DNA of 64,000 bases from the NCBI GenBank assembly GCA_000004695.1, contig CM000150.2, positions 1,600,001 to 1,664,000 of the forward strand, written 5' to 3'. This stretch comes from Dictyostelium discoideum. Its lineage: Eukaryota. A program made the translations under genes and the position numbers. Below are positions 4,768 to 33,310 of the stretch, in pieces. Under the pieces are notes generated by a model. The model saw only the letters and a program-made list of their open reading frames with translations, searched no databases and had not been told where the DNA came from. How positions within the stretch are numbered: the first letter of the stretch is position 1; every line of letters begins with the position of its first letter.

Positions 4768-7291
4768 AATCTAAAATATAATTTGAATGATTTGGTAATA
4801 CACTTGGATAATTAATTTCATGTTCTTCATAAATTTTATTAACTTCAAGTAAATTATTTAATGTTACACCAGTTGATTGTAAGATTGAAATATATAAACT
4901 ATGGTAAATGAAAATCCAATCCTTTGAAGTTGGAAATAAATTTTCATCAATCAATTTCTTTAATATGTCTTTAGCATCAGAGAATTTGATATTTGTACTA
5001 AAATGACCATTGATATCATATTGATAATCTTTTGAACGAACATCATGAAATTCATAAATTCTTTTTTGAAAACTTAATTTATTTTTACAATTATCAATCA
5101 TTTCTAAAATTAATTTTCTATTTAAATTAACTGAATCTAATATAATTGAAAATTTTTTAAAATCAACTATATGAACTAAATGTATTAATAAATCTGATGA
5201 TAATTTAAATATTTTTTCATTAATATTATCTAAATTTGTAGTAGTTGTTGTTGTAGTTGTTGAAGTTGTTGTTGTTGTTGAAATTGGTTTAAAAATTTCT
5301 TGAAATTGTTGATTTGATTTTTCAGTATTTATTAATAATAATAATTCTAAAAGGTAACAAAATATACTTGGTGTAAAAGATTTGAAACCACTTGATTTTA
5401 AATAATTAAATAATTGATCCCTTGAATTTTCATCTTTAGTGAATTTTGAATCTTTAATATCAATATGATTATCTAATTTACCTTGATAATCGTCATATTC
5501 ATCATGTTCATCATATTCACCTTCAGCATAAACATCGGGATGGGATGAAGGTCCAACTTTTTTAAAATCATAAAATTCTGGTGAAATTCCATTTTTAAGT
5601 GGTTGATTCTCTAAAAATGATTTTTGAAATAAAATTTGAAATTTATTATTATTTTGATCACTATCAATTGAAACAACCTTATCAATACTTTCAATAGTTG
5701 AAATATCACAGTCTTTTAAAGCTCTTAAAAATGATAGATAATAAATTTCTTTATTTGAAAAATATTTATTTTTTAATAGAGATTGTAATTCAATAATTTG
5801 TTGTTCTAAATCTTCTTTTTTCTTTAATTGATTACTATTTGATGATGCTTTAGATCTAGTTGAGGAGGCAGTGTTGGTGGATGATGTTGACAATGATTCA
5901 ATTTCTTTATTTATTGATTGAATATTTGAATTTATTTGATTTTCAGATTCTTTTTGGCATTCTAATAATTTTGTATGAAAATAATTAGCAAGTTCAAAAT
6001 TTGAAAATTGTAAGAATCTTTGTCTAACATTTAAATAAATTGTAATATCATCTTTAAATTTAACTATTGAATCTTTTTTATTACTAGTATCATCAACTTT
6101 TTCTTTATTATTATCATCATCATTACCATCAACATCATTATCATCATCATCATCATCTTCTTCTTCACCATCATTGATTGTTGAAGCTGAGAATAAGTTT
6201 GTATTTTCATGTTTCTTTGTAAATTTATGAATTGATGGAACTAAATGATAGAAATCCTTATGTTGAATAATGAAATCTATAAATTCTTTTGATTTAATAA
6301 TCCATGGTATTGTATTGAATCTTTTAAACTCTAATGGATGTAAATGAGGAAGTAATAAATTGGTGATATATTGAATTGTTTCTTCATTAAAATTAAAAAA
6401 ATGTTTATTTGCAGGGAAACTATTGTATAATGTCTCTAGGAAATAATTTTTTTGTTTATATTCATTAATAACACCTGTATTCATTAAAGTTGAAATTTTT
6501 AAAAGTAAAGATGGAATGGTTGAAAATTTTAAATGACCATCTCTATTTTTATTAATAAAAACTGTATGCTCTCCAAGAATTTTTTTATCATATTTTTCAT
6601 TGGGGGTAGTTGTTGTTGTTGTAGTTGTTGATAATTTTTCACTTTCATCTGATGAATATACCTTTCCTTTGAAAATTAATTTAACTATACTACTAAACCA
6701 ACTATCACTAAATTCAATACCATTTTGGTTGAAATAAACTGTTAAGAATTTAAATAAATCATCTTCTTTAATACATTGAACTGTAATTGGTTGACCAATT
6801 AATAAATCTCTACTGATTTTTTTTTTGGGGTCTATTGGTTTTATTCTCTTGTCTTTATCTAAACCTTTGAATTGATCTTTATGTTTAATTATGAAATTTA
6901 GACAATCCAAATTTAATGATTGACTTGCATAATATGCTACCCAATATTTATTTTTTTCACACATAATTGCACCATGAGTGAATTCTATTGGTTGTTTATA
7001 TAAATTTAAATAGTTTAAATAACATCTATCATTTAGATTTGTATCACCTAATTGAATAACAATTGCTCTGATTTTCTTTTCAACAAATTCATGATCGTTT
7101 TTATTATTTAAAATCTCTTTAATTTCATCATTTCTTTTCTTTAATTCTAATTTCTTTGCTGTATTTTCACTATAAATATATGAAATTGCACCTTTAATAT
7201 ACTTTTCAATTTCTAATTCATTTTTGAATATTGGTATTGGTGTACGAATTTTATAATTTGAAAATTCTGGTATTACTTTCATTCTACCCAT
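3473..7291 (-). CDS. Large hypothetical protein (1272 aa) with poly-Thr, poly-Asn and acidic low-complexity tracts. I recognise no domain.
   Basis: Long uninterrupted ORF with a true ATG at minus 7291. Its codon usage matches neighbouring genes, and a poly(A/T)-rich promoter region lies upstream. Confidence 0.6.
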
Positions 7292-7814
7292 TTTTTAATT
7301 TTTTTTTTTTTTTTAAAAAAAAAAACTTATTTTTTTGATTTTTTTTTTTTTTGATTTTAAATTAAACAAATATAAATAAAAATTAAACAAATAAAAAAAA
7401 TATTTCTATTTAGAATAAAAAAATTTGAAAATAAAAAAAAAAAAAAAAAAAAAATTATTATTATCAAAAAAAAAAAAAAAAAAAATCAAAAAAAAAATTA
7501 AATAAAAAATAAATAAAAATCAAAAAAAAAAAAAAATAATAATCTGGGTCCAAGATATTTTTATTTTTTCTTTGAACAATCAAATTTATTAGTAAAAAAT
7601 TATTTTTTTGAGAATTTTTTAAGATTCTAAAAATAGAAATTTTTTTATTTTATTTTTGATAAATCTATTTTAAAATTTTTTAAAGTGTATAATTAAATTT
7701 ATTTTTATTATTATTGTTATTATAATTATTATTATTATTATTATTTTGAATATTTGTTGTACCACCAATAATTAAATCATTAAATGGTATCCAATTTTGG
7801 TGGTTATCTAATTG

Positions 7815-9553
7815 CTATGTGGTGATTTCATCCAACATTTGGAATGGTACATTAATACTATCCTTTTTATTATTATTTTTGTTTACTTTTGAACCACTAT
7901 TTTGGGATACTCTTGTCTTTATGAAAATTGCAACTAATGCTGCTACAATAATGAATAATACAGTTGGTAATATTATTAATAAATATAATTTTTTATTACC
8001 ACCACCACCACTATTATTATTAGATTTTGAAGAATCTACTGCAGATTTCCCAACACTATCAATTTCACTATCCCCATCATCATTATTTTTATTATTATCA
8101 TCATCAGTTGTTGATGGTTTTGTTGAAATTTTAATTTGGAAATATCCTGAAATCATTTCAATTATTTCATTTGAAACTGTTGAATTTGGTGAATTATTTA
8201 TAAATGATAGCATTGTTGTATTGGTGGTTTTTGGTGATGATAAAGTATGGTATGATTTACTTAATTCACAGATGAATAATGTGTCAGTTGATAATAAAAC
8301 ATTTGAACAATTTCTTTTATTTCCATTTGGTTTTTCAATAATTACAGTAGCGTTATTTAAAAAGTTTTTACCAATTATAGTTATAAGGGTAAGTTTTTTA
8401 TCTTTGTACCCAATTACTTTATCAATTATTGGATTTGCATAGCAATAGGTAAGGTTTGAATTACCGTTGTTGTCAATTGGATTTAATAGATTATCAATGG
8501 TAATAGTGTATCCACAACCGGTGCCATTGGTTAAATAACATCTTATTGAAGTTTGAGATGATGTTAAAGTTTCACAAATTTTATTACCAATTTTAATACT
8601 TGGTTCATAATCATCAGTATAAAAGAAACTACCTTTAAATTCAACAACACCACCAACACTATTTGTTCTTTCAATACTTTTAATTATAGAATTTGGTTGA
8701 AAATGTTTACTTGAACTTTGTCCATTTTTATAAGAAATTGTTATCTTTCCCATTTCAATATCTTCAATATCAGTTATATTAAATTTAATTATATCATAAC
8801 CTTTTGAAACTGATGATGATGGTCTAGTAGGTGTTGGTGTAGGTACTGGTGTTTTAGTTGGTTTTGATGATTTTGTTGGTTTTGGTGTGGTAGTTGGTGG
8901 TGGTATAGTTTGTGATGTTGGAGTTGGTGTTGAGGTTGGAGTTGGTGTTGATGTTGGAGTTGGTGTTGAGGTTGGCTTTGATGTTGGTGAGGTAGTTTGT
9001 GGTGGTACAGTTGGTGATACAGTTGGTGGTATAGTTTGTGATGGTGTTGATGTTGGTGTTGAAGTTGGCTTTGATGTTGGTGTTGGTGTTGGTGTTGGTG
9101 TTTGTTTTGAAAAATCAGAACTATCAGAAACTTCAAATCTATCATCATTTAATTGGTCTGGATTTATTGAAACAGTTGGAATTGGATTATTTTGTGGTTC
9201 ACCTGTAACATTTAAAACTTGTCCTTTTATAAATTCAAAATCATGTATTTTATCACCCAAATATGTTACTGTCAATCCAGTTTTATCAATAGAAAAATGG
9301 CCACTAATTATAATTTCATAATATAATGGTAAATGGTCATTTGAATTAATTTTAACAATTTCTGGTGATTGATCATCTATTCATTTTTAAGATTTAAAAA
9401 AAATAAAAAATAAAAAATATTAATATATAAATTTAAATAATAAAATAAAATAAAATAAATAAAAAAATTAAATTTATTACCTTTTTTATTTGATTTTCCC
9501 AATGAATTTGAAACTAATAAAAATAAAAAAACTAATAGAATAAAATTCTTCAT
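7815..9553 (-). CDS. Secreted or type I membrane glycoprotein with a Pro/Thr-rich mucin-like stalk (TPTPTS repeats) and a C-terminal transmembrane segment. Proposed exons are 9553..9481 and 9376..7815.
   Basis: Exon 1 encodes the signal peptide MKNFILLVFLFLLVSNSLGKSNKK. A GTAATA donor follows at minus 9480, then a 104-bp AT-rich intron and an ATAG acceptor at 9378-9377. Exon 2 is in phase with the track ORF 7815..9275. The (GGTGTTGGAGTTGGT)n plus-strand repeats encode the PT tract. The hydrophobic LYLLIILPTVLFIIVAALVAIFI lies near the C-terminus. Confidence 0.55.
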
Positions 9554-9760
9554 TTTTTTTTGAGAGTTATTTTTAACTTTTTATTACCCTCTTATTATCT
9601 TTTTTTTTTATTTTTTTTTTTTATCTTTTAAAAATTCTCTATTTTTTTCTAATTTTATTAAAATAAATAATATAAATAGATTGAGTGTGAATAACAATGC
9701 GGTTCAAAAAGTCTATTTAAAAAAAAAAAAAAAAAAAAATTAATATTAATATTAATTATA

Positions 9761-9828
<68 letters not shown>

Positions 9829-9967
9829 TAAAAATAATAAAATTAATGGTTCAAAATAAACCACTCACCTTTCAAATTTTATAAAAACAATAAATAAAGT
9901 GGTGATTAAAAAAAAAAAAAAACTTAAAAAATAAATTTAAACTATTTTTAAATCTCAGTTTCACCAA

Positions 9968-10000
<33 letters not shown>

Positions 10001-10863
10001 CCAAAAAATAACCACACACCCACTAATTTATTGTAAATATGGTTTTAATGAAATAAAAAAAACAAAAATAAAAACAACAATAATAAAAACATTGAATGGG
10101 GTCACAATTTAGAATTTCCACCCAATCATTTTTTTTATTTAAAACATTTTCTTAATTTAGCTACTTTAAAAAAACACAGTAGAAAAAAAAAAAAAAAAAA
10201 AAAAAAAAATAATAAATAAATTTTTAATTAATAATTATATTTCTCAATGTTCATTTGCAAAGATATAATCACCCATTACTCTATCATCACTATCACAAAA
10301 ACCCAACACAACCACTTTTTTTTTTTTTAAATTAAAATCAAAAAACACTTTCTCACCAAAAAATAAAAAACCCACAGTTCTCTAAATTTGCTTTCCAACC
10401 ATTTAATTATTTCTTTAAGAAACAATATTTGATTGCAACTACTCATCATATATATCATTATTAATAATATTATTATTATATTTTATTTTCATTGATTTCT
10501 TTTTATTATTTTTTTCAGTTTTAATTTGCTCATTGCCAATAATAATTTAAAAAAATAAAAATAAAAACAATAATAAAATTTCAAAACAAAAAAAACTTTT
10601 TTAATTATTAATAATAATTAATAATTTTTTTTATTATTTTCACTTTCTGTAAACATTTCTATACTTTTGTTATTATCTTAGATCCACATTGTTATAATGG
10701 TATTTGTTCTACACTTTAAACCTTCTATTGACGTTTTAAAACAGAAATCTAACTATCCTCTATAATTAAATATTTTTTTGTTTCTTCATTTATCTAATTA
10801 TAGTGGTCAACTTTTTTTATCAAAATTTAATTGGATGTGGCTTGCATCCTAAATCAAACAGAT

Positions 10864-10878
10864 AGGGAGATCGGTACA
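10864..10878. repeat. Target-site duplication (left copy, gggagatcggtacac) flanking the TRE3 insertion
   Basis: The identical 15-mer recurs at 15405..15419, immediately outside the element's poly(A) end and its 5' end. Confidence 0.7.
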
Positions 10879-10998
10879 CTTTTTTTTTTTTTTTTTTTTA
10901 CCTGTGATCAGACCTTCAAGGAATGTCCTTGTGTCTTTTCGGCGGTGTTTGTTAAACGGTTTTATTTTTATTATTCAATTGTATTAAATTTTTTAAAC

Positions 10999-11077
<79 letters not shown>

Positions 11078-11082
11078 ACTAC

Positions 11083-14000
11083 TTAAATTGGAAGAGGGTT
11101 CGGAGCTGCTGGGGTTTGCCAGGCTTTGTTGAATTTGTATTTGTGAAGATCTTGATTGGTGTTTTTTAGTATTGCTTCGTCGTGTTTGATTTTCTTTAGT
11201 GTGATGAATTTTTCAGTTTCGATGAGATTTAGTAATTCTGTTTCTATGACCTTTTGCTCGAATTTTGGCTCTGGTTTGCTTTCATCAGTGTTGAACAATT
11301 TGTGACAGATTATCTTCCATAATTGGTGTGCTATTATTCCTATGAGATTGGGGAAGATTCTCTCAGTTCTGTTGTATTTTGATATGTCTAAGGTATCCAT
11401 TGACCATCTGTGGATTTTGATGAATGATAATTTGTTAACTGTTGATATGATGGTTTTTTCAATATCTAGGATATCTTGGCATAGAGTGAAGAGGTGAGAA
11501 TAAGGGTCTCTGAATAGGTGGCCACAGATCTTGCATCTGGTGTCTCTTTCGTGGTTGATACCTGGAAGTGATCTTGAGAAGAATCTGAAGAGGGTGTTTC
11601 TACCTTTTTGGTGAGAAATGCTGTTGATGTTTATGAATACTTTGGGTATTTCTGTGTTGTATCTCACCGCCCATAACTTCTGCCATTCTGTTCTTCTTGG
11701 TGTTGGGTGTCTGTCTTTGATCATGAGTTCGTAAATTTCTTTCAGTTTTAGTGGTTCATCATTGTCGTTTCTTATACAGTCTGGAAGTTCATTTATCTTT
11801 GGATGATTTTGGTAAAATTTGACTCTGAATACACCCCAGTGTCTGCACATATCGTTGAGGGTTGAAGTGTGGGCTTTTTTTCTACTTAATTGCTCCATGT
11901 ACCATTCTTGTAAAGTATTGTTGTTGTTGTTGTAGTTGTTATGGAGTAGCCTGTTCATGTACCAGATTTTGAATGCTATATGTCTTAGTTCTATATCCCA
12001 TAATTTTATGCCTCCTTCTTTCCAATCTGCATATGCTCTGTCTATTTTCATCATAGTTTTGTATTTTCTCTCTTCTGTATATGTATTCTTAACTGAGGAG
12101 AATAAGAACCATCTGGTCATGTTATTGATTTCCTCAATTTGTTCTTCATTTAGATTATCCATGTATTGATGGTATGTTAATTTGGATAGAACGTATGTTT
12201 TGAGAATTGTCATCTTTGCCTTCATCGTTATTGCTTGTGATTTCCATTTGATTAGATTGTTTTTCATTTCTTGGATTAAAGTGTTGTATTTTGAATTTAA
12301 ACCTGTTTTGGTGAAATTGAGGCCAAGATATCTTTCTGGGACTGTACTCTCTTGGAATGGTAGATCGTGTGGTTTATCTCCTATTGCTATCATTACTGTT
12401 TTCTCTTTGTTTAACGATGATGATGTTGCTGAGCAGTACTTTTGGATTTTAGTATTAATTTTCATTAGTTCTTCTGTGGAGTTTGTAAAGGTTGCTATGT
12501 CGTCAGCAAATGCAGTGAGTTTTAATGATTTGGAATTTGGTAGAGTGAAGCCTTTGATTGTATTATCATTGATGATATCTATTAGAAGTGGTTCTAAAAC
12601 TAGAGCAAAGATTGTTGGTGATATTGGGTCTCCTTGTTTTGTTCCTCTTCTGATTGTTATTCCATTGACTAAAAAGTCGTTGATCTTTATTTTGTTTTTA
12701 GTATCTTTGAGTAGGTTTAGTAGGATCGCTGTGAATTTTGGGGGGATACCAATATGCTCTAATGTTCTTGTGATACTCTTGTGGCTGATTGAATCGAATG
12801 CTTTGTTAAAATCGTAAAAGGTAATGAGTGTATTGTTCTTTCTTTTGTTACTTATTTCTATTACTTCCTTCATGATCTGAATATTGTCTTGGATGAACCT
12901 GTTTGGAACAAAGCCGTTTTGAAATTTGTTGATAATTTTACTGGTGATATCTAATAATCTACTGTTGAGAATTTTGCTTAAAATTTTGTAATCTGTATTG
13001 AGAAGGGTGATTGGTCTTCTATTTGAAATGTTTAGTTCATCTCCTTTTTTGAATATTGTTGTTATTACTCCTTCTTTGAATTTTGTGGGGATTTCTTTCT
13101 TATTTGTGAGGAGGTCGTTGAAAGCTATAGTCAATATTCTTGCTATTGAGTTGATGTGGTACTTGTAGAATAGTGCATTGATACCGTCTAAACCTGGAGA
13201 TTTGTGGATACTTGAAGTTTTGATTGCTTTGGTCACTTCATGTATTCTTATTGGTCTGTCTATCTCTAGTTTCTTGATTAAATCAACGTCTACTTCCCAT
13301 TTTTCTAATAACTTCTTGTGGGTTTCTTCGTTATCTTCTTTCTCTTCATATTGATCTTGATAGAATTCAACAAATCTTTTTGCTATGTTCTCTTTATCTG
13401 ATATGGGCTTATTATCTTTATCTTTTATTTGGAATATTGATTTATCTTTGGCTCTGGATTTAAGGATACTTGTGAGGTATTTGCTTGGTGTTTCTTGATG
13501 CAGGTGGAGTTTTAATTTGATATCCCATGCTTTTACCTTTCTTTCTTCTTCTAATATTCTACTTATTTCTTCATTGAGTTCTTTTCTCATCTTTGGAATG
13601 ATATCACTATTTTCAAGTAATTTGTGGATTACGTATTTTCTTTTGTTCTTTTCTTTCTTTATTTTGTTTTGTTCTTTTTTTAAATAATCTCTGATGACAT
13701 TATTTTTAAATTTCGTCCATTCCTCCACTGATTTGATCTTATCTTTGTTCTTACTGATTAATTCTGATAACCCATCATGTATATGTTTGTTGTTGAGAAT
13801 TTCTTTACATAATGTCCAAGGGAGTCTTTCTAGTTTGGTTGTTGTTGTTGTTGTTGTTTCTCTGTTGGTTTGTATTGAGATTGTGATGGGAAAGTGATCT
13901 GATTTGTTAAATACTGTGTTGTGGACTACCAATTTTGAATTTTGGTTTAGTAGTGTTGGATGACAGTAGATTCTATCTAGTCTCTTCATTGATCTTGGAA

Positions 14001-14526
14001 ATGTTGGAGTGTTTTCTTCAATACCAGTATCTAGTAGCATGTCTTGGTCTATTATTTTACGTAATTCAGTACCGAAGAAGCTGTTGCAATCGTGGTTGTT
14101 ATTGAAGTCGCCTGCTATTATTTGATGGTTGATTGAATTATATTTTTTAAACAGTGATTTTGAGTTGATTATGAAGGTGTTTCTTTCAGATATAGTCGCT
14201 GGAGCATAGATCAATAATATGTTGATAGAATTAAAGGAATTGTATTTAATTGATAGTATTCTACCATCATCGTCTTTGAAGTTTATTGATATGTGGCCTT
14301 TTCTTGTATCTCTATTTTCTATTGCTATGCCAGTTCCTTTACCTGAACCATGATCTATTCTTTCAAAGTTGAACATTGTTTTGTGGTGGTTGAATCCATT
14401 GAAATTAGTTTCAGTTAGGAGTGCTAATTGAGTGCCAATTCTTTTTATCGTTTCTTCTGTTTTATTCTTAGCGTTGGTTGATTGATTACCTCTGCAGTTC
14501 CATAGTAATAATTTTAATTGTTCCAT
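11083..14526 (-). CDS. TRE3 ORF2 polyprotein (endonuclease + reverse transcriptase)
   Basis: 1147-aa ORF containing the APE endonuclease region, the RT domain with FADD and the C-terminal Cys/His motif. Confidence 0.8.
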   Translation of the reverse strand: MEQLKLLLWNCRGNQSTNAKNKTEETIKRIGTQLALLTETNFNGFNHHKTMFNFERIDHGSGKGTGIAIENRDTRKGHISINFKDDDGRILSIKYNSFNSINILLIYAPATISERNTFIINSKSLFKKYNSINHQIIAGDFNNNHDCNSFFGTELRKIIDQDMLLDTGIEENTPTFPRSMKRLDRIYCHPTLLNQNSKLVVHNTVFNKSDHFPITISIQTNRETTTTTTTKLERLPWTLCKEILNNKHIHDGLSELISKNKDKIKSVEEWTKFKNNVIRDYLKKEQNKIKKEKNKRKYVIHKLLENSDIIPKMRKELNEEISRILEEERKVKAWDIKLKLHLHQETPSKYLTSILKSRAKDKSIFQIKDKDNKPISDKENIAKRFVEFYQDQYEEKEDNEETHKKLLEKWEVDVDLIKKLEIDRPIRIHEVTKAIKTSSIHKSPGLDGINALFYKYHINSIARILTIAFNDLLTNKKEIPTKFKEGVITTIFKKGDELNISNRRPITLLNTDYKILSKILNSRLLDITSKIINKFQNGFVPNRFIQDNIQIMKEVIEISNKRKNNTLITFYDFNKAFDSISHKSITRTLEHIGIPPKFTAILLNLLKDTKNKIKINDFLVNGITIRRGTKQGDPISPTIFALVLEPLLIDIINDNTIKGFTLPNSKSLKLTAFADDIATFTNSTEELMKINTKIQKYCSATSSSLNKEKTVMIAIGDKPHDLPFQESTVPERYLGLNFTKTGLNSKYNTLIQEMKNNLIKWKSQAITMKAKMTILKTYVLSKLTYHQYMDNLNEEQIEEINNMTRWFLFSSVKNTYTEERKYKTMMKIDRAYADWKEGGIKLWDIELRHIAFKIWYMNRLLHNNYNNNNNTLQEWYMEQLSRKKAHTSTLNDMCRHWGVFRVKFYQNHPKINELPDCIRNDNDEPLKLKEIYELMIKDRHPTPRRTEWQKLWAVRYNTEIPKVFININSISHQKGRNTLFRFFSRSLPGINHERDTRCKICGHLFRDPYSHLFTLCQDILDIEKTIISTVNKLSFIKIHRWSMDTLDISKYNRTERIFPNLIGIIAHQLWKIICHKLFNTDESKPEPKFEQKVIETELLNLIETEKFITLKKIKHDEAILKNTNQDLHKYKFNKAWQTPAAPNPLPI

Positions 14527-15398
14527 TATTTTCTAATACTACTGGCAATTGGAAACTTGGTACCATTGCTTGTAGTAATTTTATTGATAGGTTTTGTAGT
14601 AGTAGTAGTAGTAGTAGTAGTTTTGTTTAGGTTGTAGATTGTTGTATTGCTTGTTGGTAATTGATGTGTGGTTGTTGTTGGTGTGGTTGTTGTTTGTGTG
14701 GTTGTTATTGGTGTGGTTGTTATTGGTGTGGTTGTTGATGTATTAGTTGTTGGTGGAGTTGATGGTATTGATTTAGTTGTATTTGTAGTTGTTGGTTGTT
14801 GGTTTTTATTACTTGTGTTTTTTTTTTTTCTAACATCTCTTATTTCTTTATTGTTATATTCAGAGATGAAGGCTCTTATTGGATGCTTACTACCTTTTAT
14901 AGCATCAATGTTTGTTTTAATGATTGAGATATCATCTTCTTTATTAAATAATAGTATGCATGAATATCTAATCACATCTGGTAGCATTACTATGTTGCAT
15001 TCATCTATTAGTAATGGCTCCAATCCCCAGTTTTCTTTTACCATTTGATTGTTTATTTTTTTTATTATGTTTTTTGTAAATGTGTAAAAGTGGACATAGT
15101 GATATCCTGGGGTGTAAAGTATGAATTTTTGCAGTGGGAAATCTTCATACTTGAAAGTGCTGTAACACTCGTGTAATAATGTGAATTTTTCTTTTAGTAT
15201 TCTACCGAATACTGTTATACCCTTTTGTCTTCTGACAATGTTAAGAGTACCATTAACTATGAAATTATCTATTAATTTTGTTGAATTACTATTTAATTCC
15301 AAGGTATTTGGGTAGAATAACCTTATTTGAATAGTTTTTTTATTTAACTCTTCTTCGCCTAAGTTGAGTTCACCTTTAAGTTTATCGAAAAAATTCAT
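14524..15398 (-). CDS. TRE3 ORF1 (Thr-rich nucleic-acid-binding protein)
   Basis: The true ATG is at minus 15398, since the track's first M is a GTG. The ORF ends in TAA, which overlaps the ORF2 ATG as TAATG. It has a Thr/Pro-rich C-terminus. Confidence 0.7.
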
Positions 15399-15404
15399 TT
15401 TTTG

Positions 15405-15419
15405 GGGAGATCGGTACAC
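15405..15419. repeat. Target-site duplication (right copy, gggagatcggtacac) of the TRE3 insertion
   Basis: Exact 15-bp match to 10864..10878. Confidence 0.7.
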
Positions 15420-15470
15420 GAAGTGGAACACTCTCCATAATTCTGCCCAGATTTACAAATAATTGTAATA

Positions 15471-15487
15471 TCCGAAGTTCGGATTTT
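15471..15487. promoter_or_regulatory. External B box (exB), a palindromic B-box-like element ccgaagttcggattttt downstream of tRNA-Pro
   Basis: It is GTTCGRATT-like and nearly palindromic, and lies 22-38 bp 3' of the tRNA. An extra B box downstream of tRNA genes is an established Dictyostelium feature and a TFIIIC site. The same element recurs at 18418..18434. Confidence 0.6.
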
Positions 15488-15508
15488 TGAAAATTCGTTA
15501 AAAAAACT

Positions 15509-15579
15509 GGGGAGATCCGAGAATCGAACTCAGGACGCTACCACCCAAAGGTAGCATTATACCACTTAACTAATCTCCC
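15509..15579 (-). tRNA. tRNA-Pro (anticodon UGG), 71 nt, no encoded CCA
   Basis: Manual folding gives acceptor GGGAGAT/ATCTCCC, D-arm GTTA..TAAT, anticodon stem CTACC/GGTAG with loop TTTGGGT (U33, anticodon TGG, G37), and T-arm CTGAG-TTCGATT-CTCGG. The discriminator is C. Confidence 0.8.
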
Positions 15580-16015
15580 ATTTTGATATTTTTTTGTGAT
15601 ATATCACCTACAAAAAAATCAAAATTAAAATTTTAAAATTATTATAAACTTTTTTTGATTTTGTAAATAAATTTTAAAATTTGTTAATGTAATTACATTT
15701 AAATTATTAATTTTATTTTATTTTTTCAGTTGAATTAAATTTTATTTAATTTAGCTGGTTTGAGGGCAGCAGCAGCAATTTTAAGATTTGTACGATATCT
15801 TTTAAAAATGATTGATGCTAAAATTACAATTAAAGCAGAACCAACAACTGGGACTATTATTACAACATATAAAAACCATTTTCTTGATGAAGTTGATTCA
15901 CACTCATCACCATTATCAATTGGAGGTGGTGATACTAATACTGAAAAATCCTATATTTATAAATATTTAATTTAATTTATTAATAAACTATAAATACCAC
16001 TATTATTAACTATTA

Positions 16016-17831
16016 TTAATTATTATTACTTACTGGATCAATTAAACATTCATGAATACAATGAGGCATATTTAAACCAACCATTAATGAAGTTGAATTT
16101 TTATAAATTAAAGAAGTTGATAAATAAGAAATTCTATTATCAGATAACATATTTTTTAAGAATCTACCATAAAATATTTTACTATCTTTTGAAATAGTTA
16201 TAATATTTGATGATAATTCATCGGTGGTTATACCATTTGTACCGATTTCAGTCTCATTTCTTATGGTATTTCCACATGAATCAAATTGAGTTTGATTACC
16301 ATTAACATCTGATAAAATTCGTAATTGTAAAAAATTTAAACCACTTTGATATTTATAATTTGATATTGATACTGTTATTTTTATAGAATGTGGGTCAACT
16401 CTAAAATCTACACCTGCAAATGAGTATCTTACTGGTTGATCTTTAATTTCCTCAATTGTATATCTAATTGTACAATTTCTATCTGAAATAAATTGATTAT
16501 AATTTGTGATTTGTTTATTTGATAATGGTGATTTTGTAATTGATGGTGTTGTTGTAGCTGTTGGTGTTGGTGTAGTTGTTGAATTTGTAATAGTAGTAGT
16601 ATAATTCCAATTATTATATAATATATATTCATTTATAATTATACCATTAATATCATACTCTACTAAACTATAAATATTAATTGAATAAGTTACATTTTGA
16701 TTCGATATGATTGAAGACCCATTATTAGTGACTGAAGTTTCAGTATTATTATTACTATTTAATTGAGCAGAACAATCTAAACCGGAATAACCTTGAAAAC
16801 ATTCACAAACACCTGTTGAACTATCACATTTACCTTGACTGATTTTTGTACAATTATTTAAACATTGGTACACTTTTGGGGTATACTTAAATAGATTAAT
16901 ACCCAAAGTGCTTAACCCATTGTTATCTTGAAATGTTATGTTTTTAACACCACTACCCGCTTCAATTGTACATTGAAGTGTATTCCAGACATTTGGGGGC
17001 CCCGAAATTGGATTTTTACAAAGTTTATCACCAATTAATATCTGAGCATTGTTTGTAATATTGCCAAAGTATCCATAAATATTAATTAACCCACCCGTTT
17101 CTTCAGGTGCACTATCACTTGAACTTATAAATAATTTAGAAGATTCACAACCTAATCCCTCGGTTTGTGAATCACATAAACAATCACCTGTGTATACATT
17201 ACAAATACCATGATTTGAACAATTGTATAAACATTCTCTACAAATTACTTTACTACTAATATAGGTGTTATAGGTACAAATGGGATTCTCTTGAACTTGT
17301 ATCACTTTAAAATCTGTACTTGGGTCACATTTTAAATAAAAATTGGTATGTCTATAATTACCTCCTGCTAAACAATCTGTAATACCAAGTTTTTCAGTTA
17401 CATAACCAATATTTAATTGATTACTAGCATAACTAACTATTTCATTCACTGCAAGTGATCCTGCTTTACTACTATCAATACAGGCTCTTTCATTACCACA
17501 TAAACTTATTGGTACTTTACAAAAATTGAATGAAATTGTAGAAGTTCCTCCTATATTATTTGTAAATGCTTGTGAATATGGTGAATTTGCTGGTCGCCTT
17601 TAATTTGAAAAAAAAAAATTAAAAATTAATGAAAAAAAAAATATTGAAAATAAAAAAAAAAAATTAAAATCTGCACTTTTTAACATAAAAATAATTATTT
17701 ATTACTTACAATATCTTTGTTAAATTATAAATTCCTCCAAATACAGTGTTATTATAAATACAATTATCTTGAGATTTTGAAAATTTAATATTAAATAAAA
17801 TAAATAAAATAAAAAATAAATTCTTTTTCAT
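16016..17831 (-). CDS. Secreted cysteine-rich protein with EGF-like modules. Proposed exons are 17831..17710 and 17597..16016.
   Basis: Exon 1 encodes the signal peptide MKKNLFFILFILFNIKFS... A GTAAGT donor follows at minus 17709-17704, then a 112-bp intron and a TTAAAG acceptor. Exon 2 is in phase with the track ORF. EGF-like spacing is seen in CRECLYNCSNHGICNVYTGDCLCDSQTEGLGC and CDSSTGVCECFQGYSGLDC. A Thr-rich stretch lies near the C-terminus. Confidence 0.55.
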
Positions 17832-18417
17832 TCTTTAATACATATTTATTTGTTATTTTCGATAAATATAAAAAAGATAATCTTAAAATAAAAAAATAAA
17901 ATAAAAAATTAAAATAAAGGTAAAAAAATAAAAAATTAAAATAAAAGTTAAAAAAAATCCTCTTTATTTCGAAAAAAACATCATTTTTTTATTATAATAA
18001 AAATAAAAAAAAAATATCAAGATTTTTTTTTTATGTCCTTTCATATGGGAAAAAATTGGTCAAGAATTTTTTTTTTTTTTTTTTTGATATTTTTTTTTTT
18101 TTTTTTTTTTGTGGAAGATTTGTCTGGTATGGATTTTTTCTTTTTTTTTTTTTTTTTTTAAATATTGGTCAGAGTTAAACAATAGTTTTAATTATTAATT
18201 ATAATTTTAAAATGTAGAATCGAGTATGAGAGCTTTCGTCTATAAATGGTTTCATGAACCAATATACAATTGATTACAGAACTTATGAATTATTAATTCC
18301 ATTATGTCTCTATATTCAAAGGTTTTTGAGGTCATTATTTAAAAATTTTTTACCTCATTCAAAATATTCTTTGTGGTCTATGTTAATCTTATTGATTATT
18401 ATTCAATATCTTAAATC

Positions 18418-18434
18418 CGAAGTTCGGATTTTTC
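18418..18434. promoter_or_regulatory. External B box (exB) downstream of the second tRNA-Pro copy
   Basis: Same ccgaagttcggattttt element as at 15471..15487, at the same spacing from the tRNA. Confidence 0.6.
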
Positions 18435-18453
18435 AAAATTCGATAAAAAGAGT

Positions 18454-18524
18454 GGGGAGATCCGAGAATCGAACTCAGGACGCTACCACCCAAAGGTAGC
18501 ATTATACCACTTAACTAATCTCCC
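18454..18524 (-). tRNA. tRNA-Pro (UGG), second copy, identical to the one at 15509..15579
   Basis: Identical 71-nt sequence, including a conserved 3' flank of about 45 bp. Confidence 0.8.
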
Positions 18525-18790
18525 ATTTTGATTTTTTTTGATTCAACACCTTTAAAAAAATAATTAAATACAATTTTATAAACTTTTTTTAAACTTGTTT
18601 ATTTTTTTTAAATTTGTAAATAAATTTTTGTTAAATGTAATTTTAATTAATTTATAATAATTGAAATTATAAATAATTGAAAATTGTAATAAAAAAAAAA
18701 TAAAAAAAAATTTTTAATTTCAATTTTTTTTTTTTTTATTTTTTCGTTTATTTTTTTTTTTTTTTTCACAGCAACAACAAAAATAATAAA

Positions 18791-19297
18791 ATGGCATCAA
18801 AACTTGGATTTGTTCATCAAGCTACACAAAATGTTTTATTTAAACAACCACGTTTCTATTTAGAGGCTTCATCAAAAGGTCAATTTGCTGATTCAATTGT
18901 TGATTTGTCAGGTATTCAACGTTGGAATAATGATAGAAGTAAAATAGGTAATCAATTTTCAAATAGATTCGTTAAACCATCACGTGTTAAATTTTTAAGA
19001 AAGAAACAAGTTCAAAAATATAAATGGGATCACTTTGTTTATGATGTTTGTAAAAATTATGAATTTATTAGAGAAAAGTTTGTATTAATTTCATTCATTC
19101 ATATAAAAAATTATATATATATATATATAATATTATATTAAATTTTAATTCATTTAATTTTATCAATATATTACTATTATAATAAATAATTAATTAATTA
19201 ATTAAAATTTTAAAGTGCAAGAGAAATTTCAAGAGAACCAAACAGATTAGCAAAAATTGAAAGAGCAAATTCATGGTTAGGTGATTATCATCAATAA
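18791..19297 (+). CDS. Small basic hypothetical protein of about 122 aa. Proposed exons are 18791..19077 and 19216..19297.
   Basis: The track ORF 18791..19141 runs into an AT-rich (TA)n region. A GTTTGT donor at 19078 (non-canonical, but GT) and a TAAAG acceptor at 19214-19215 (phase 2) give the in-frame C-terminus N-AREISREPNRLAKIERANSWLGDYHQ*. The first-exon product is Lys/Arg-rich (FVKPSRVKFLRKKQVQKYKW). Confidence 0.4.
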
Positions 19298-19581
19298 CCC
19301 AAAAAAAAGAAAAATAAAAAATAAAAAATTTAAAAATAATCAATTAATTTAGTTAAAAAGGAAAAAGAAACAAAAAAAAAAAAAAAAAAAAAAAAAAACA
19401 AAAAAAAACAAAAGAGAAAGTATATATATATATTTCTCATTATTTTATTTTATTTTATTTTTTATTTTTTTATTTTTAAACAAATAAAGAAATAAAGAAA
19501 TAAAGAAATGGAAAAAAAAAAAAAAAGAAAAAAATTGAAAAAAAAAATAGAAAAAAAAAGATAGTCACTATATTATATTTT

Positions 19582-20155
19582 TTAAATTCTTATTTTACGT
19601 TGTTTTTGTAAATATTGTTTTAATTGTTGTTCTTGTTGTTTTTGTTGTTGATGGCGTTGTTGATATTGTTGTGAAAATGATTTCTTATTTTCAATTAAAG
19701 TGATTGATTTCTCTATTGAATCATTTGATAATTGATTAGAGATATCAGTACAACGATTTTTAATTTTTTCATAATTCTCTTTAATTGATAAAATTGAATT
19801 AAATAAATCATCTTTTTTTAAAGTTGATGATTTTAATCCAATACCAATACCCATTGATTCAATCCTTTTAGCCCATGTTGATTGATCAAATGATAATGAA
19901 GTTATAATTGATGGTAGCGATGATTTCAACACTCCAGATATTGAATTCATATTACCACCATATGAAATTGACAATGAACAATACTTATAAATCCATTGAT
20001 AATCATTTTTAAAATTATTAATATTTATAACATTTTCTAAACTAATTTCATTTTGATTATTACCATTACTACCACTACCACTACTATTTAAAATTATCCA
20101 TTTTTGATTATTACCAAATTTTTCAATTGTATATTTTAAAATTGGTATTATTTCT

Positions 20156-32148: not shown

Positions 32149-32773
32149 AAAAAAAAAGTACTTTATATGGTTACTAGAGTACCTAGATTCGTGACATGTT
32201 CTTCTTATGATGTTTGTTCTTGTAAATTTGTTAATGATTGCAATGCCTTCATAAACGATAATTTATCATAGTAAATAAAATAAATTAAAACATATAATTG
32301 TACAAAGCAAATTCCTATTTTTTCGTTTATTTAAAAATAAAACCAAAATATAAATTTTATTTTGGTTAATTTTTTTTTTTTTTTTTTTTTTCTAATCAAA
32401 TAAATAAAAGATTAATTATAAATAATTTTTTATATGTGTTCAAATTTTATTTTTGTATTGGCAAAACTTATTAAAATAACTCGGAACATTGTCCCACTTA
32501 GTTCAAAGGTTTTCTGTAATCAATAATGGCAATGGCACAGTGAGTGAAAGTTTCAAGCTTTCTTCAAACAAAATTACCCTTTCAATTTTTTGTATTTATA
32601 GTAAATTCCCAGCCATTTTATTGTTTAATTAATGTTTTTTTAAAAATGTATACAATATTTAGTTATGATTCCAATTATTATATTAAGTTTCTTATATGCG
32701 ACCAAAAATGTTTTTTCACCAAAAAAAATTTAAAAATGCATTGGAGCAAAATTAACAAAATTTCATAATAAGT

Positions 32774-32846
32774 GCCTGGATGGCTCAGTAGGCAGAGCGA
32801 GCGGCTGTTAACCGCTAGGTCCATGGTTCGATCCCATGTCTAGGCG
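32774..32846 (+). tRNA. tRNA-Asn (anticodon GUU), 73 nt
   Basis: Manual folding gives acceptor GCCTGGA/TCTAGGC, D-arm GCTC-AGTAGGCA-GAGC, anticodon stem AGCGG/CCGCT with loop CTGTTAA (anticodon GTT), variable loop AGGTC, and T-arm CATGG-TTCGATC-CCATG. The discriminator is G. Confidence 0.8.
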
Positions 32847-32876
32847 ATAATTTTCCACCACAATTACACGGTTTAA

Positions 32877-32887
32877 GGGTTCGATTC
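32877..32887 (+). promoter_or_regulatory. External B box (GGGTTCGATTC) about 31 bp downstream of tRNA-Asn
   Basis: It matches the internal B-box consensus GGTTCGANTCC, and its position fits the Dictyostelium exB arrangement. Confidence 0.6.
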
Positions 32888-32992
32888 TGACCAAAATGAA
32901 ACGGAGGTATTGAAAAAAAAATAAAATTAAAAAAAAAATAAACCTTCATCTATAACTAAGGTATCCCCCAATAATATATATTAAAGTAATAT

Positions 32993-33120
32993 GATATATA
33001 ATATAGTTTAAAAAATTTAATACAATTGAATAATAAAAATAAAACCGTTTAACAAACACCGCCGAAAAGACACAAGTACATTCCTTGAAGGTCTGATCAC
33101 AGGTAAAAAAAAAAAAAAAA
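32993..33120 (+). mobile_element. 5'-truncated solo 3' end (C-module + poly(A)) of a TRE3-type retrotransposon, flanked by a 17-bp target-site duplication (atatattaaagtaatat at 32976..32992 and 33120..33136)
   Basis: About 110 nt (...atataatatagtttaaaaaatttaatacaattgaataataaaaataaaaccgtttaacaaacaccgccgaaaagacacaagTacattccttgaaggtctgatcacaggt-A16) match the 3' end of the full-length element at 10879..11000 with a single mismatch. It lies about 137 bp downstream of tRNA-Asn and about 95 bp past its exB. Confidence 0.75.
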
Positions 33121-33310
33121 TATATTAAAGTAATATAAAAAAAATCTATATTATCCAACTTTCTTTATAGTTTCTTAACATTTTAAACATGCACCAAAAT
33201 ATCTTTTTTTTTATTTTAAACTTTTTTTTTTTTTTAGATTTTTAATTTTTAATTTTTTTTATTTTTTATTTTTTTATTTTAAACTTTTTTTTTTACCCAA
33301 CACCCTTGTA

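Follow-up and report, generated by a model that had tools for sequence, protein, structure and literature searches.

A pair of identical tRNA-Pro(UGG) genes in Dictyostelium discoideum, conserved in position among related species, with a palindrome at the exB position and a TRE3 retrotransposon at one copy

Background

The gene families of rDNA, tRNA or snRNA are the classical cases of concerted evolution by gene conversion, and pairs of identical tRNA genes that lie a few kilobases apart are usually read as recent duplicates. Here, we describe two identical tRNA-Pro(UGG) genes, copy A and copy B, on chromosome 1 of Dictyostelium discoideum AX4, which were analysed within a stretch of 64,000 nucleotides (the window). 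This pair resembles the classical cases in that the paralogues are closer to each other within a lineage than the orthologues are between lineages, and in the sharp ends of the similar tract. However, the tract takes in the non-coding flanks of a pair of only two members that are placed around a unique protein-coding gene. The spacing of a few kilobases is like that of other pairs of identical tRNA genes, from which the AX4 pair differs in being conserved across species. Taken as a whole, it is probable that the pair is ancient and has kept its position on both sides of the gene DDB_G0268180, that it has been homogenised by selection and gene conversion, that it carries a palindrome in place of exB, that TRE3 was added later at copy A, and that insertions at copy B are not tolerated.

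Two further systems are close to this locus. The exB of Dictyostelium (Hofmann et al. 1991; Siol et al. 2006, cited in PMC3159450) is found, like the palindrome described here, ~25-40 bp downstream of the tRNA gene and past the terminator, and extra B boxes are reported ~41 bp downstream of 66% of the D. discoideum tRNA genes. The palindrome is also similar to exB in being conserved and in its position, at which D. citrinum, D. firmibasis, and the D. cf. discoideum assembly ACTFIZ have a canonical exB. In contrast to exB, it is a perfect palindrome and deviates from the consensus GTTCRAnYC on both strands. The TRE3 family (Szafranski et al. 1999; Glockner et al. 2001; Spaller et al. [quoted passage not shown]

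Results and discussion

Two complete tRNA genes with similar flanks

As a preliminary description of this DNA had it, two 71-nt tRNA-Pro genes are found ~2.9 kb apart on one strand; ARAGORN and Rfam agree on both, and the exact distance is 2945 bp (Table 1). The tRNAs are 100% identical and carry the anticodon UGG. They score 57 bits against the Rfam tRNA family (RF00005), which has a gathering score of 29, and pseudogene features are absent, by which the assignment to tRNA-Pro(UGG) is upheld. The internal B box of copy A, GTCctgaGTTCGATTC, matches GTCnnnnGTTCRAnYC, and in both copies the B box GTTCGATTC is preceded by GTCctga. The conserved box on the 5' side is common to the A and B copies of D. 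discoideum, D. cf. discoideum, and D. citrinum. With this box, the internal A and B boxes, the T-run terminator, and the element at the exB position, each copy would constitute a complete Pol III unit.

The sequence common to both copies reaches past the tRNAs into the flanking control regions, which had also been seen before, and spans about -145 to +41. BLAST aligns ~250 bp at 83% identity, and the gapped similarity of ~145 bp on the 5' side scores 33 compared to a maximum of 25.5 among 500 shuffles. The 3' flanks are less alike than had been claimed: instead of an identical stretch of ~45 bp there are 36 matches in 41 bases, with uninterrupted identity over no more than 19 nt (AAAAATCCGAACTTCGGAT), a block in which the palindrome lies. 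The homology is confined to these ~250 bp. The genes downstream of the two copies are not paralogous, and DDB_G0268180, which lies between the copies, is not duplicated. A more extensive tandem duplication that would take in the downstream gene was rejected because the two downstream proteins are unrelated.

Table 1. Features of the tRNA-Pro(UGG) gene pair and its surroundings. Positions refer to the window; signed numbers are distances from the respective tRNA gene.
Feature	Position	Strand	Source or remark
tRNA-Pro(UGG) copy A (proximal), 71 nt	15509-15579	minus	ARAGORN; Rfam
tRNA-Pro(UGG) copy B (distal), 71 nt	18454-18524	minus	ARAGORN; Rfam
Internal B box GTTCGATTC, copy A	15521-15529		
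Internal B box GTTCGATTC, copy B	18466-18474		
T7 run, presumed Pol III terminator, copy A (+3..+9)	15500-15506	minus	sequence
T5 run, presumed Pol III terminator, copy B (+5..+9)	18445-18449	minus	sequence
Conserved 5' box, copy A (T-run, GGTG, A-run, ATCAAAAT)	15580-15618	minus	
Conserved 5' box, copy B	18525-18560	minus	
15-nt perfect palindrome ATCCGAA-G/C-TTCGGAT, copy A (+25..+39)	15470-15484		
Identical palindrome, copy B (+25..+39)	18415-18429		
A/B similarity around copy A (about -145..+39), putative gene-conversion tract	15470-15723	minus	BLAST
A/B similarity around copy B	18415-18653	minus	BLAST
DDB_G0268180, between the tRNA copies	15735-17831	minus	three exons; EGF and ComC supersandwich domains
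TRE3-type non-LTR retrotransposon, 4525 bp, both ORFs complete	10880-15404	minus, tRNA orientation	
TRE3 ORF1, 290 aa	14526-15398	minus	exact match DDB_G0268582
TRE3 ORF2, 1147 aa	11083-14526	minus	Pfam and motif
TRE3 A20 tail	10880-10899		
TRE3 internal A67 run	11008-11074		
Target-site duplication GGGAGATCGGTACAC, tRNA-side copy (+90..+104)	15405-15419		
Target-site duplication, copy past the poly(A) tail	10865-10879		
Exact exB of tRNA-Asn (control)	32879-32887		

A palindrome at the position of exB

Both 3' flanks carry the same 15-mer, ATCCGAAGTTCGGAT. The 11-mer ccgaagttcgg, which had been pointed out in both flanks, is unique to these two sites within the window, where 0.03 sites are expected, and the palindrome is found at these tRNA flanks only. 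The tRNA-Pro 3' end together with the palindrome was not found in a metagenome scan (0 matches). For comparison, orthologous loci were drawn from eight genomes, using the orthologue of DDB_G0268180 as anchor to locate them. Judged by the variable columns over eight independent copies, the palindrome stands out within the D. discoideum clade as a conservation island: three of its 17 columns vary compared to 16 of 23 in the spacer (Fisher p = 0.0016) and 22 of 26 in the sequence after it (p = 2e-5). In D. citrinum, ACTFIZ, and D. firmibasis, a canonical exB on the sense strand sits at the palindrome's position (GGTTCGATTC, GGTTCAATTC, or GGTTCGACTC at +33..+43).

The palindrome itself does not conform to the B box consensus. 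Compared to GTTCRAnYC, the sense strand (CTTCGGATW) has three mismatches and the antisense strand (GTTCGGATT) has two, the latter being the best B-box-like reading, and the palindrome is missing among the matches to GTTCRAnYC with at most one mismatch in the window. A tRNA-Asn gene of the same window, which served as control, has an exact exB. Matches with one mismatch are present in the window at the level of chance (102 compared to 118 expected). The earlier interpretation as an exB-like TFIIIC site therefore holds for the position, which is that of exB in the sister taxa, but not for the consensus. From both together, the palindrome is most readily understood as a derived exB position, and as a putative TFIIIC site at most. 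In the D. discoideum lineage, the canonical exB (GGTTCGATTC) has thus probably given way in both copies to the palindrome AAATCCGAACTTCGGATTT.

Several functions can be imagined. The palindrome may be a functional exB variant that binds TFIIIC with a half-site on both strands and aids the Pol III machinery as well as TRE targeting, a reading to which we give slightly less than even weight. It would agree with the location, at which other D. discoideum tRNA genes have their extra B boxes and the sister taxa have a canonical exB, and with the conservation of the palindrome. Also, in copy A of ACTFIW the central base has changed from C to G and the symmetry is kept. It is harder to reconcile with the three sense and two antisense mismatches, which include the A58-equivalent position, and with the chance frequency of the one-mismatch matches. 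In addition, TRE3 keeps a distance of ~100 bp to the tRNA end next to the palindrome in AX4 as well as next to the canonical exB in D. citrinum. Because these distances are similar, the element at the exB position does not have a visible effect on the placement.

More tentatively, it could be that the canonical exB was swapped in the D. discoideum lineage for a selectively kept palindrome of the form AAATCCGAA-N-TTCGGATTT, which would be a new bidirectional TFIIIC site or the site of another factor, and which would have been spread by conversion between the two ancient copies, perhaps family-wide, deep into the non-coding flanks. A swap of exB for a conserved palindrome would represent a natural experiment on the role of exB in Pol III transcription and in retrotransposon targeting.

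It seems unlikely that a decayed exB was replaced by the site of a different, dimeric factor, or by a hairpin in read-through transcripts that would act as back-up terminator together with the following UUU. Although the perfect 7+1+7 palindrome would suit either function, a candidate factor is not known, and the predicted RNA hairpin is weak (free energy between -6.2 and -8.2 kcal/mol; z approximately -2.4). With both variants found in the arms (C>T in FIR_B and A>G in FIW_B), the sense strand could still pair through G-U, and TTT directly follows the palindrome in most copies, but two of two wobble-compatible changes correspond to a p of only 0.25. The T-run terminator (T4-T7) is located upstream. 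The palindrome is therefore beyond the normal transcript end, and most transcripts should stop before reaching it.

TRE3 downstream of copy A

The retroelement begins exactly at +105 of copy A, as had been reported for the proximal copy. ORF1 belongs to a 90% identity cluster with the GenBank 'gag' AAD43058.1, and ORF2 contains an Exo_endo_phos (APE) domain at residues 8-211, an RVT_1 domain at residues 493-737, and a CCHC motif at residues 998-1016. The target-site duplication is perfect over 15 bp. Judged by its domains, tail, target-site duplication, distance, and orientation, the element is of the TRE3 type. It would have been inserted later in the AX4 lineage by target-primed reverse transcription, in the standard orientation and leaving the 15-bp duplication. 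The leader in front of the ORF1 ATG has 6 nt compared to ~190 nt in another copy (L009), and this TRE3 therefore is probably devoid of a 5' UTR. It was also considered that the element, and not the target, might include the 27 nt in front of it, which was rejected because the L009 copy differs upstream of the ORF1 ATG.

TREs in the same orientation are present at a tRNA-Asn (+146), in D. citrinum (+84 to +111), and in D. firmibasis (about +100), and a TRE array downstream of a tRNA-Phe in L009 also has the orientation of the tRNA. The idea that the distance of TRE3 is set from exB is not supported: where D. citrinum has a canonical exB, the insertion likewise keeps ~100 bp to the tRNA end, and the cases are too few. 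The insertion at the tRNA-Asn is found 106-114 bp from its exB, which would be compatible with a distance set from exB. A degenerate tRNA remnant at the target site was suspected because GATCTCCC looks like a tRNA 3' end, and rejected because the alignment score is no better than those of shuffles; ARAGORN at its normal threshold does not find a tRNA at the TRE3 target site either.

ACTFIT has the TRE3 at the orthologous site (99.2% identity), and ACTFIR, ACTFIW, ACTFIY, and ACTFIZ lack it. Around the target site, a segment of 58 bp is specific to AX4. Although ACTFIR and ACTFIW are labelled D. discoideum, they are just 87-91% identical to AX4 in this region. The absence of TRE3 may thus represent the divergence of cryptic species and not a polymorphism within the species. 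The comparison of AX4 with ACTFIR and ACTFIW is of modest value in offering a clean occupied and empty state of TRE3 at one and the same site, and in this it is a better pair than copies A and B.

Absence of TREs from copy B

Copies A and B had been proposed as a natural pair of an occupied and an empty target. A TRE3-type element is indeed present at one copy only, but this is not special given that 65.8% of the tRNA genes on chromosome 1 bear a TRE. Also, the region downstream of copy B is empty only with respect to TREs. The distal flank resembles neither this TRE3 nor a second type of TRE and does not contain an RT ORF, but the palindrome of copy B is followed by a segment of ~270 bp (18135-18412) with poly(A) at its end, which only the D. 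discoideum strains have. In the eight genomes examined, a recognisable TRE was not found at copy B. In contrast, copy A has been hit repeatedly in other lineages, with insertions at the A position in five lineages. The recognised insertions are all at A (5/5; one-sided binomial p = 0.03, the events not being fully independent).

Copy B is situated between two divergent start codons, at distances of 267 bp and 622 bp, in what is a short bidirectional promoter region, and insertions there are likely harmful. Most likely, copy B is free of TREs because insertions there are not tolerated, rather than because it is a worse target. A poor TRE3 target, being transcriptionally inactive or not bound by TFIIIC, would also have produced the zero TREs at B next to the repeated hits at A. 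However, we regard this as improbable: B matches A in the tRNA, the A and B boxes, the terminator, the palindrome, and the 5' box, TRE5-A is able to target 95% of all tRNA genes in experiments, about a third of the tRNA genes on chromosome 1 are unoccupied anyway, and the position between the start codons would likely make insertions harmful.

Age and homogenisation of the pair

The tRNA-Pro(UGG) pair flanks the orthologue of DDB_G0268180 in ACTFIT, ACTFIR, and ACTFIW (D. discoideum), in both D. cf. discoideum assemblies (ACTFIY and ACTFIZ), and in D. citrinum. The duplication is therefore old. In D. firmibasis, copy B is conserved and a second copy is found nearby in inverted orientation, which may not be orthologous. 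The locus of D. purpureum does not contain the tRNA and is not syntenic. A tRNA-like stretch in an insert upstream of copy A of ACTFIZ is not recognised by Rfam. Across the genomes, 16 of 16 tRNA sequences are identical, while the protein encoded between the copies is 80-86% identical to that of AX4 in D. cf. discoideum and D. citrinum, and the surrounding DNA 75-87%. That a ~250-bp tRNA unit with its Pol III control elements was duplicated recently to a place 2.9 kb away, as the earlier suggestion of a segmental duplication could be understood, would explain with little elapsed time the identical tRNAs and the 83% identity of the flanks with sharp ends, but it is very improbable and largely refuted by synteny, since the copies are at equal positions in D. 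citrinum and in the two assemblies of D. cf. discoideum, paralogy is seen neither for the intervening gene nor for the downstream ones, and the flanks have diverged by 12-25% with indels whereas the tRNA is invariant. Identical neighbouring tRNA genes of Dictyostelium thus need not be recent, and could be old pairs that have been homogenised into their flanks.

Within genomes, the 3' flanks of copies A and B (+1..+42) are 86% identical in AX4, 95% in FIW, 80% in D. citrinum, and 77% in D. firmibasis, compared to 47-62% between the clades, which corresponds to the background level. The similarity ends sharply at about +42, and further out the sequences group by position (e.g. FIR_A and FIW_A are 92% identical). 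Paralogous 3' flanks that are alike within a clade and cannot be aligned between clades argue for gene conversion. Inside the D. discoideum clade, the identities of paralogues and orthologues are comparable in the 3' flank (75-95%), and selection alone could account for the similarity there. All in all, the shared flanks seem better explained by gene conversion in combination with selection, as far as can be read from the similarity patterns of a few genomes. The copies would then be kept alike by purifying selection on the Pol III elements and by conversion tracts that reach into the flanks, and any member of the tRNA-Pro(UGG) family could have been the donor. In AX4, the tract would extend from about -145 to +41 and the direction of the conversion was probably from B to A; in the region -140..-41, copy A of AX4 is 64-71% identical to the B copies of all strains compared to 42-60% to its own positional orthologues.

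Age and probable concerted evolution of the tRNA-Pro(UGG) pair

ARAGORN identifies three tRNA genes within the window (see the table). Both Pro genes are also recognised by the Rfam tRNA model with 57 bits each (gathering score 29), in agreement with the preliminary description of two 71-nt tRNA-Pro(UGG) genes on the same strand. The proximal gene (copy A) and the distal gene (copy B) are identical at 71 of 71 nt, and both contain the internal B box GTCctgaGTTCGATTC, which agrees with the published Dictyostelium B-box consensus GTCnnnnGTTCRAnYC. Orthologues of DDB_G0268180 are present in several new assemblies, from which the loci were taken together with 10-kb flanks. Because two copies flank the orthologues in relatives, the A/B pair is old and not the product of a recent segmental duplication. 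Across the compared loci all tRNA-Pro(UGG) sequences are identical (16/16).

Features of the Dictyostelium discoideum AX4 window and of related loci. Positions are those of the window; signed distances are counted from the tRNA ends on the tRNA strand.
Genome	Feature	Position	Strand or orientation	Remarks
AX4	TRE3 target-site duplication	10865-10879 and 15405-15419		exact, 15 bp, GGGAGATCGGTACAC
AX4	TRE3	10880-15404		4525 bp, A20 end
AX4	TRE3 ORF2	11083-14526	same as copy A	1147 aa; Exo_endo_phos (APE), RVT_1, C-terminal CCHC motif
AX4	TRE3 ORF1	14526-15398	same as copy A	290 aa
AX4	palindrome, copy A	15470-15484		ATCCGAA-G-TTCGGAT, +25..+39
AX4	copy A, tRNA-Pro(UGG)	15509-15579	minus	ARAGORN
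AX4	DDB_G0268180	15735-17831		between the two tRNAs; EGF and ComC supersandwich domains
AX4	palindrome, copy B	18415-18429		ATCCGAA-G-TTCGGAT, +25..+39
AX4	copy B, tRNA-Pro(UGG)	18454-18524	minus	ARAGORN
AX4	tRNA-Asn(GUU)	32773-32847	plus	ARAGORN
D. discoideum ACTFIT, ACTFIR, ACTFIW	tRNA-Pro(UGG) pair	either side of orthologue	same
D. cf. discoideum ACTFIY, ACTFIZ	tRNA-Pro(UGG) pair	either side of orthologue	same
D. citrinum	tRNA-Pro(UGG) pair	either side of orthologue	same
D. firmibasis	upstream tRNA-Pro(UGG) kept; second copy	3.9 kb downstream	second copy inverted
D. purpureum	locus without tRNA			non-syntenic
D. citrinum	A-position insertion	+84 to about +290		3' fragments of two TRE types
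D. firmibasis	TRE3-like ORF2 fragment	start ~100 bp downstream of inverted copy
ACTFIY	143-bp insert	13 bp upstream of copy A		TG...CA ends; DGLT-A-like position
ACTFIZ	~1 kb insert	end 53 bp upstream of copy A		TRE5-like position

The likeness of the two copies extends into their flanks. From +1 to +41 the 3' flanks match at 36 of 41 positions with a longest exact run of 19 nt (AAAAATCCGAACTTCGGAT), so that they are not identical as first described. The score of their local alignment (30) exceeds what is expected by chance (shuffles: mean 10.6, maximum 18). In the 5' flanks a gapped similarity of ~145 bp has a score of 33 (shuffle maximum 25.5), and BLAST bounds the shared unit at 15470-15723 and 18415-18653 (83% identity). 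The unit takes in the flanking control elements, as had been proposed. Past +41 the likeness breaks off sharply, and the protein genes downstream of the two copies are unrelated to each other. Within genomes, A and B are 86% (AX4), 84% (ACTFIR), 95% (ACTFIW), 81% (ACTFIY), 80% (D. citrinum), and 77% (D. firmibasis) identical over +1..+42, and identity over the same stretch among the D. discoideum clade, ACTFIZ, D. citrinum, and D. firmibasis is at the background level of 47-62%. Past +45, A and B of one genome are unrelated (47-59%) and the positional orthologues are alike (92% for the A copies of ACTFIR and ACTFIW). The -140..-41 region of AX4 copy A is 64-71% identical to copy B of every strain and 42-60% identical to copy A of the strains other than AX4; because it is nearer to copy B, a conversion tract directed from B to A is suggested for AX4. 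A proximal 5' box (T-run, GGTGTT, A-run, ATCAAAAW) has been kept in both copies in D. discoideum, D. cf. discoideum, and D. citrinum, and agrees with the "5'-flanking consensus boxes" to which the title of Hofmann et al. (1991) refers. We infer that the sequence common to A and B reflects selection on the Pol III elements together with gene conversion reaching into the flanks, and these two forces would keep the copies alike. Since orthologous loci share the pair and the downstream genes are unrelated, the segmental duplication proposed earlier should give way to an ancient pair that gene conversion has probably kept uniform.

Compared to window positions 7000-20000, the ACTFIR and ACTFIW loci are just 87-91% identical to AX4, coding sequence included. 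This divergence is far above the expectation for strains of one species, and therefore both genomes, although labelled D. discoideum, may represent cryptic species.

A palindrome at the position of the external B box

The 11-mer ccgaagttcgg is found at two sites in the window, both at the Pro copies (0.03 expected), as the core of a 15-nt palindrome. According to published data, 66% of the D. discoideum tRNA genes have extra B boxes (exB) ~41 bp downstream with the core GTTCRAnYC, and the tRNA-Asn(GUU) gene of the window has an exact canonical exB (GTTCGATTC, 32879-32887). The interpretation of the palindrome as an exB-like TFIIIC site applies to its position, which is equivalent, but not to its sequence, which has three mismatches to the core on the sense strand (CTTCGGATW) and two on the antisense strand (GTTCGGATT). 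It is not among the window matches to GTTCRAnYC with at most one mismatch, whose number (102 versus 118 expected) corresponds to chance frequency. At the same place (+33..+43), ACTFIZ, D. citrinum, and D. firmibasis carry canonical exBs on the sense strand (GGTTCAATTC, GGTTCGATTC, and GGTTCGACTC, respectively). In eight independent copies of the D. discoideum clade, 3 of the 17 columns of the palindrome are variable, whereas the spacer has 16 variable columns of 23 and the sequence behind the palindrome 22 of 26, making the palindrome an island of conservation (Fisher p = 0.0016 and 2e-5, respectively). Its central base is C in some copies and G in others, by which the symmetry is retained. 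Because of the exBs of the sister taxa and this conservation, the palindrome is best regarded as a derived element in the place of the exB that appears to be under constraint. It was not found elsewhere in the nine fetched loci. The RNA hairpin predicted for it is weak (-6.2 to -8.2 kcal/mol, z about -2.4) and located past the T-run terminator.

Each part of the locus, which belongs to an annotated model genome, is of a well-described kind, namely Dictyostelium tRNA genes with flanking boxes, TRE3, and identical tRNA pairs, and the interest of the locus is low. Mildly new are only the conserved palindrome in place of the exB and the concerted evolution, flanks included, of a pair shared across species. 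The preliminary description was largely right in its observations, save for the "identical" flanks, and partly so in its interpretation.

TRE3 downstream of the proximal copy

The first base of the TRE3 element is located 105 bp beyond the 3' end of copy A, the distance given in the preliminary description, whose assignment to TRE3 also holds. Published TRE3 elements have two ORFs, an APE-RT-zinc finger arrangement, a poly(A) tail, and integrate ~100 bp downstream of tRNA genes, and the element agrees with them in all these characters. ORF1 and ORF2, both downstream of copy A, overlap. ORF1 exactly matches DDB_G0268582 of D. discoideum AX4, which is located on chromosome 1, and falls into a 90% identity cluster with a GenBank D. 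discoideum "gag". Its ATG is preceded by just 6 nt, compared to ~190 nt of other sequence in the copy at another ACTFIT locus with TREs (L009), and therefore the 5' UTR is probably missing while the ORFs are complete. Directly after the ORF2 stop there is a 67-nt internal A-run (a T-run on the plus strand, 11008-11074), which ~105 nt of 3' UTR separate from the terminal A20.

The perfect target-site duplication and the intact ORFs point to a young insertion. In ACTFIT the element is 99.2% identical to that of AX4, as is the whole 13-kb region, and in ACTFIR, ACTFIW, ACTFIY, and ACTFIZ it is missing at copy A. The target site is located inside a relatively GC-rich segment of ~58 bp (GTGTTCCACTTCGTGTACCGATCTCCC and TATCTGTTTGATTTAGGATGCAAGCCACATCC; 15405-15431 and 10834-10864), which AX4 and ACTFIT share and which the empty alleles in ACTFIR, ACTFIW, and ACTFIY lack. 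It could be the remnant of an older insertion or have been deleted in the other lineages.

Occupancy of the distal copy

The distal copy had been described as empty. Indeed, no recognisable TRE is present in the interval from copy B to the next start codon (17831), where neither an RT ORF nor similarity to the TRE3 of the window or to the second TRE type of L009 was found. However, a poly(A)-ended segment (on the tRNA strand) of ~270 bp (18135-18412) directly follows the palindrome of copy B. It is common to AX4, ACTFIR, and ACTFIW, is missing from both D. cf. discoideum assemblies, and could be an old truncated retroelement, in which case copy B would not be truly empty.

All recognised insertions (5/5) are at A (one-sided p 0.03), and none is recognisable at the B position in any genome compared. 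Because the events are not fully independent, a bias for A over B is suggestive only. Copy B is separated by 267 bp from the start codon of a small gene with divergent transcription and by 622 bp from that of DDB_G0268180, compared to about 1.4 kb of intergenic DNA downstream of copy A with TRE3 removed. Given these distances, and given that tagged TRE5-A can reach 95% of the tRNA genes and that 65.8% of the chromosome 1 tRNA genes are occupied, we consider a genuine difference in targeting less likely than chance or a retention bias, in which insertions at B are selected against.

Insertions in relatives and at other tRNA genes

The A-position copies were hit independently in the D. citrinum, D. 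firmibasis, ACTFIY, and ACTFIZ lineages. The fragments at D. citrinum copy A (L002 12349-12557) are nested, with a 45-nt tail (12376-12420) 98% identical to the AX4 TRE3, a second tail of 87 nt 92% identical to the other TRE type of L009, and an isolated B-box-like string (TTGTTCGATTCCAACC) between them. The D. firmibasis element (L003 13756-16021) is 5'-truncated; over its ORF2 residues 421-1085 it shares 37% identity with the AX4 copy, and its DNA is 69% identical to the L009 element. By its termini (TGTAAT...ATTACA) the ACTFIY insert (L008 12285-12427), which interrupts the conserved 5' box of copy A, looks like a solo LTR; DGLT-A is typically found about 15 bp upstream of tRNA genes. The ACTFIZ insert (L001 12300-13290) is GC-richer and adjoined by an (ATT)n microsatellite and a T-run. 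At the end facing the tRNA it contains A-box-like and B-box-like strings, but the Rfam tRNA model does not recognise this end.

A severely 5'-truncated TRE3 (32993-33120) starts at +146 of the tRNA-Asn gene in the orientation of the tRNA. It shares 99% identity with the 3'-terminal 125 nt of the full copy and has a poly(A) end. A 16-bp target-site duplication (TATATTAAAGTAATAT) is located on either side of it (32977-32992 and 33121-33136), and it is truncated exactly where the internal A-run of the full element stops. At L009 (144-9500) a tRNA-Phe(GAA) gene is followed by a tandem TRE array in the same orientation, an example of the TRE-TRE tandems known from the literature; the first element has a duplicated 3' tail.
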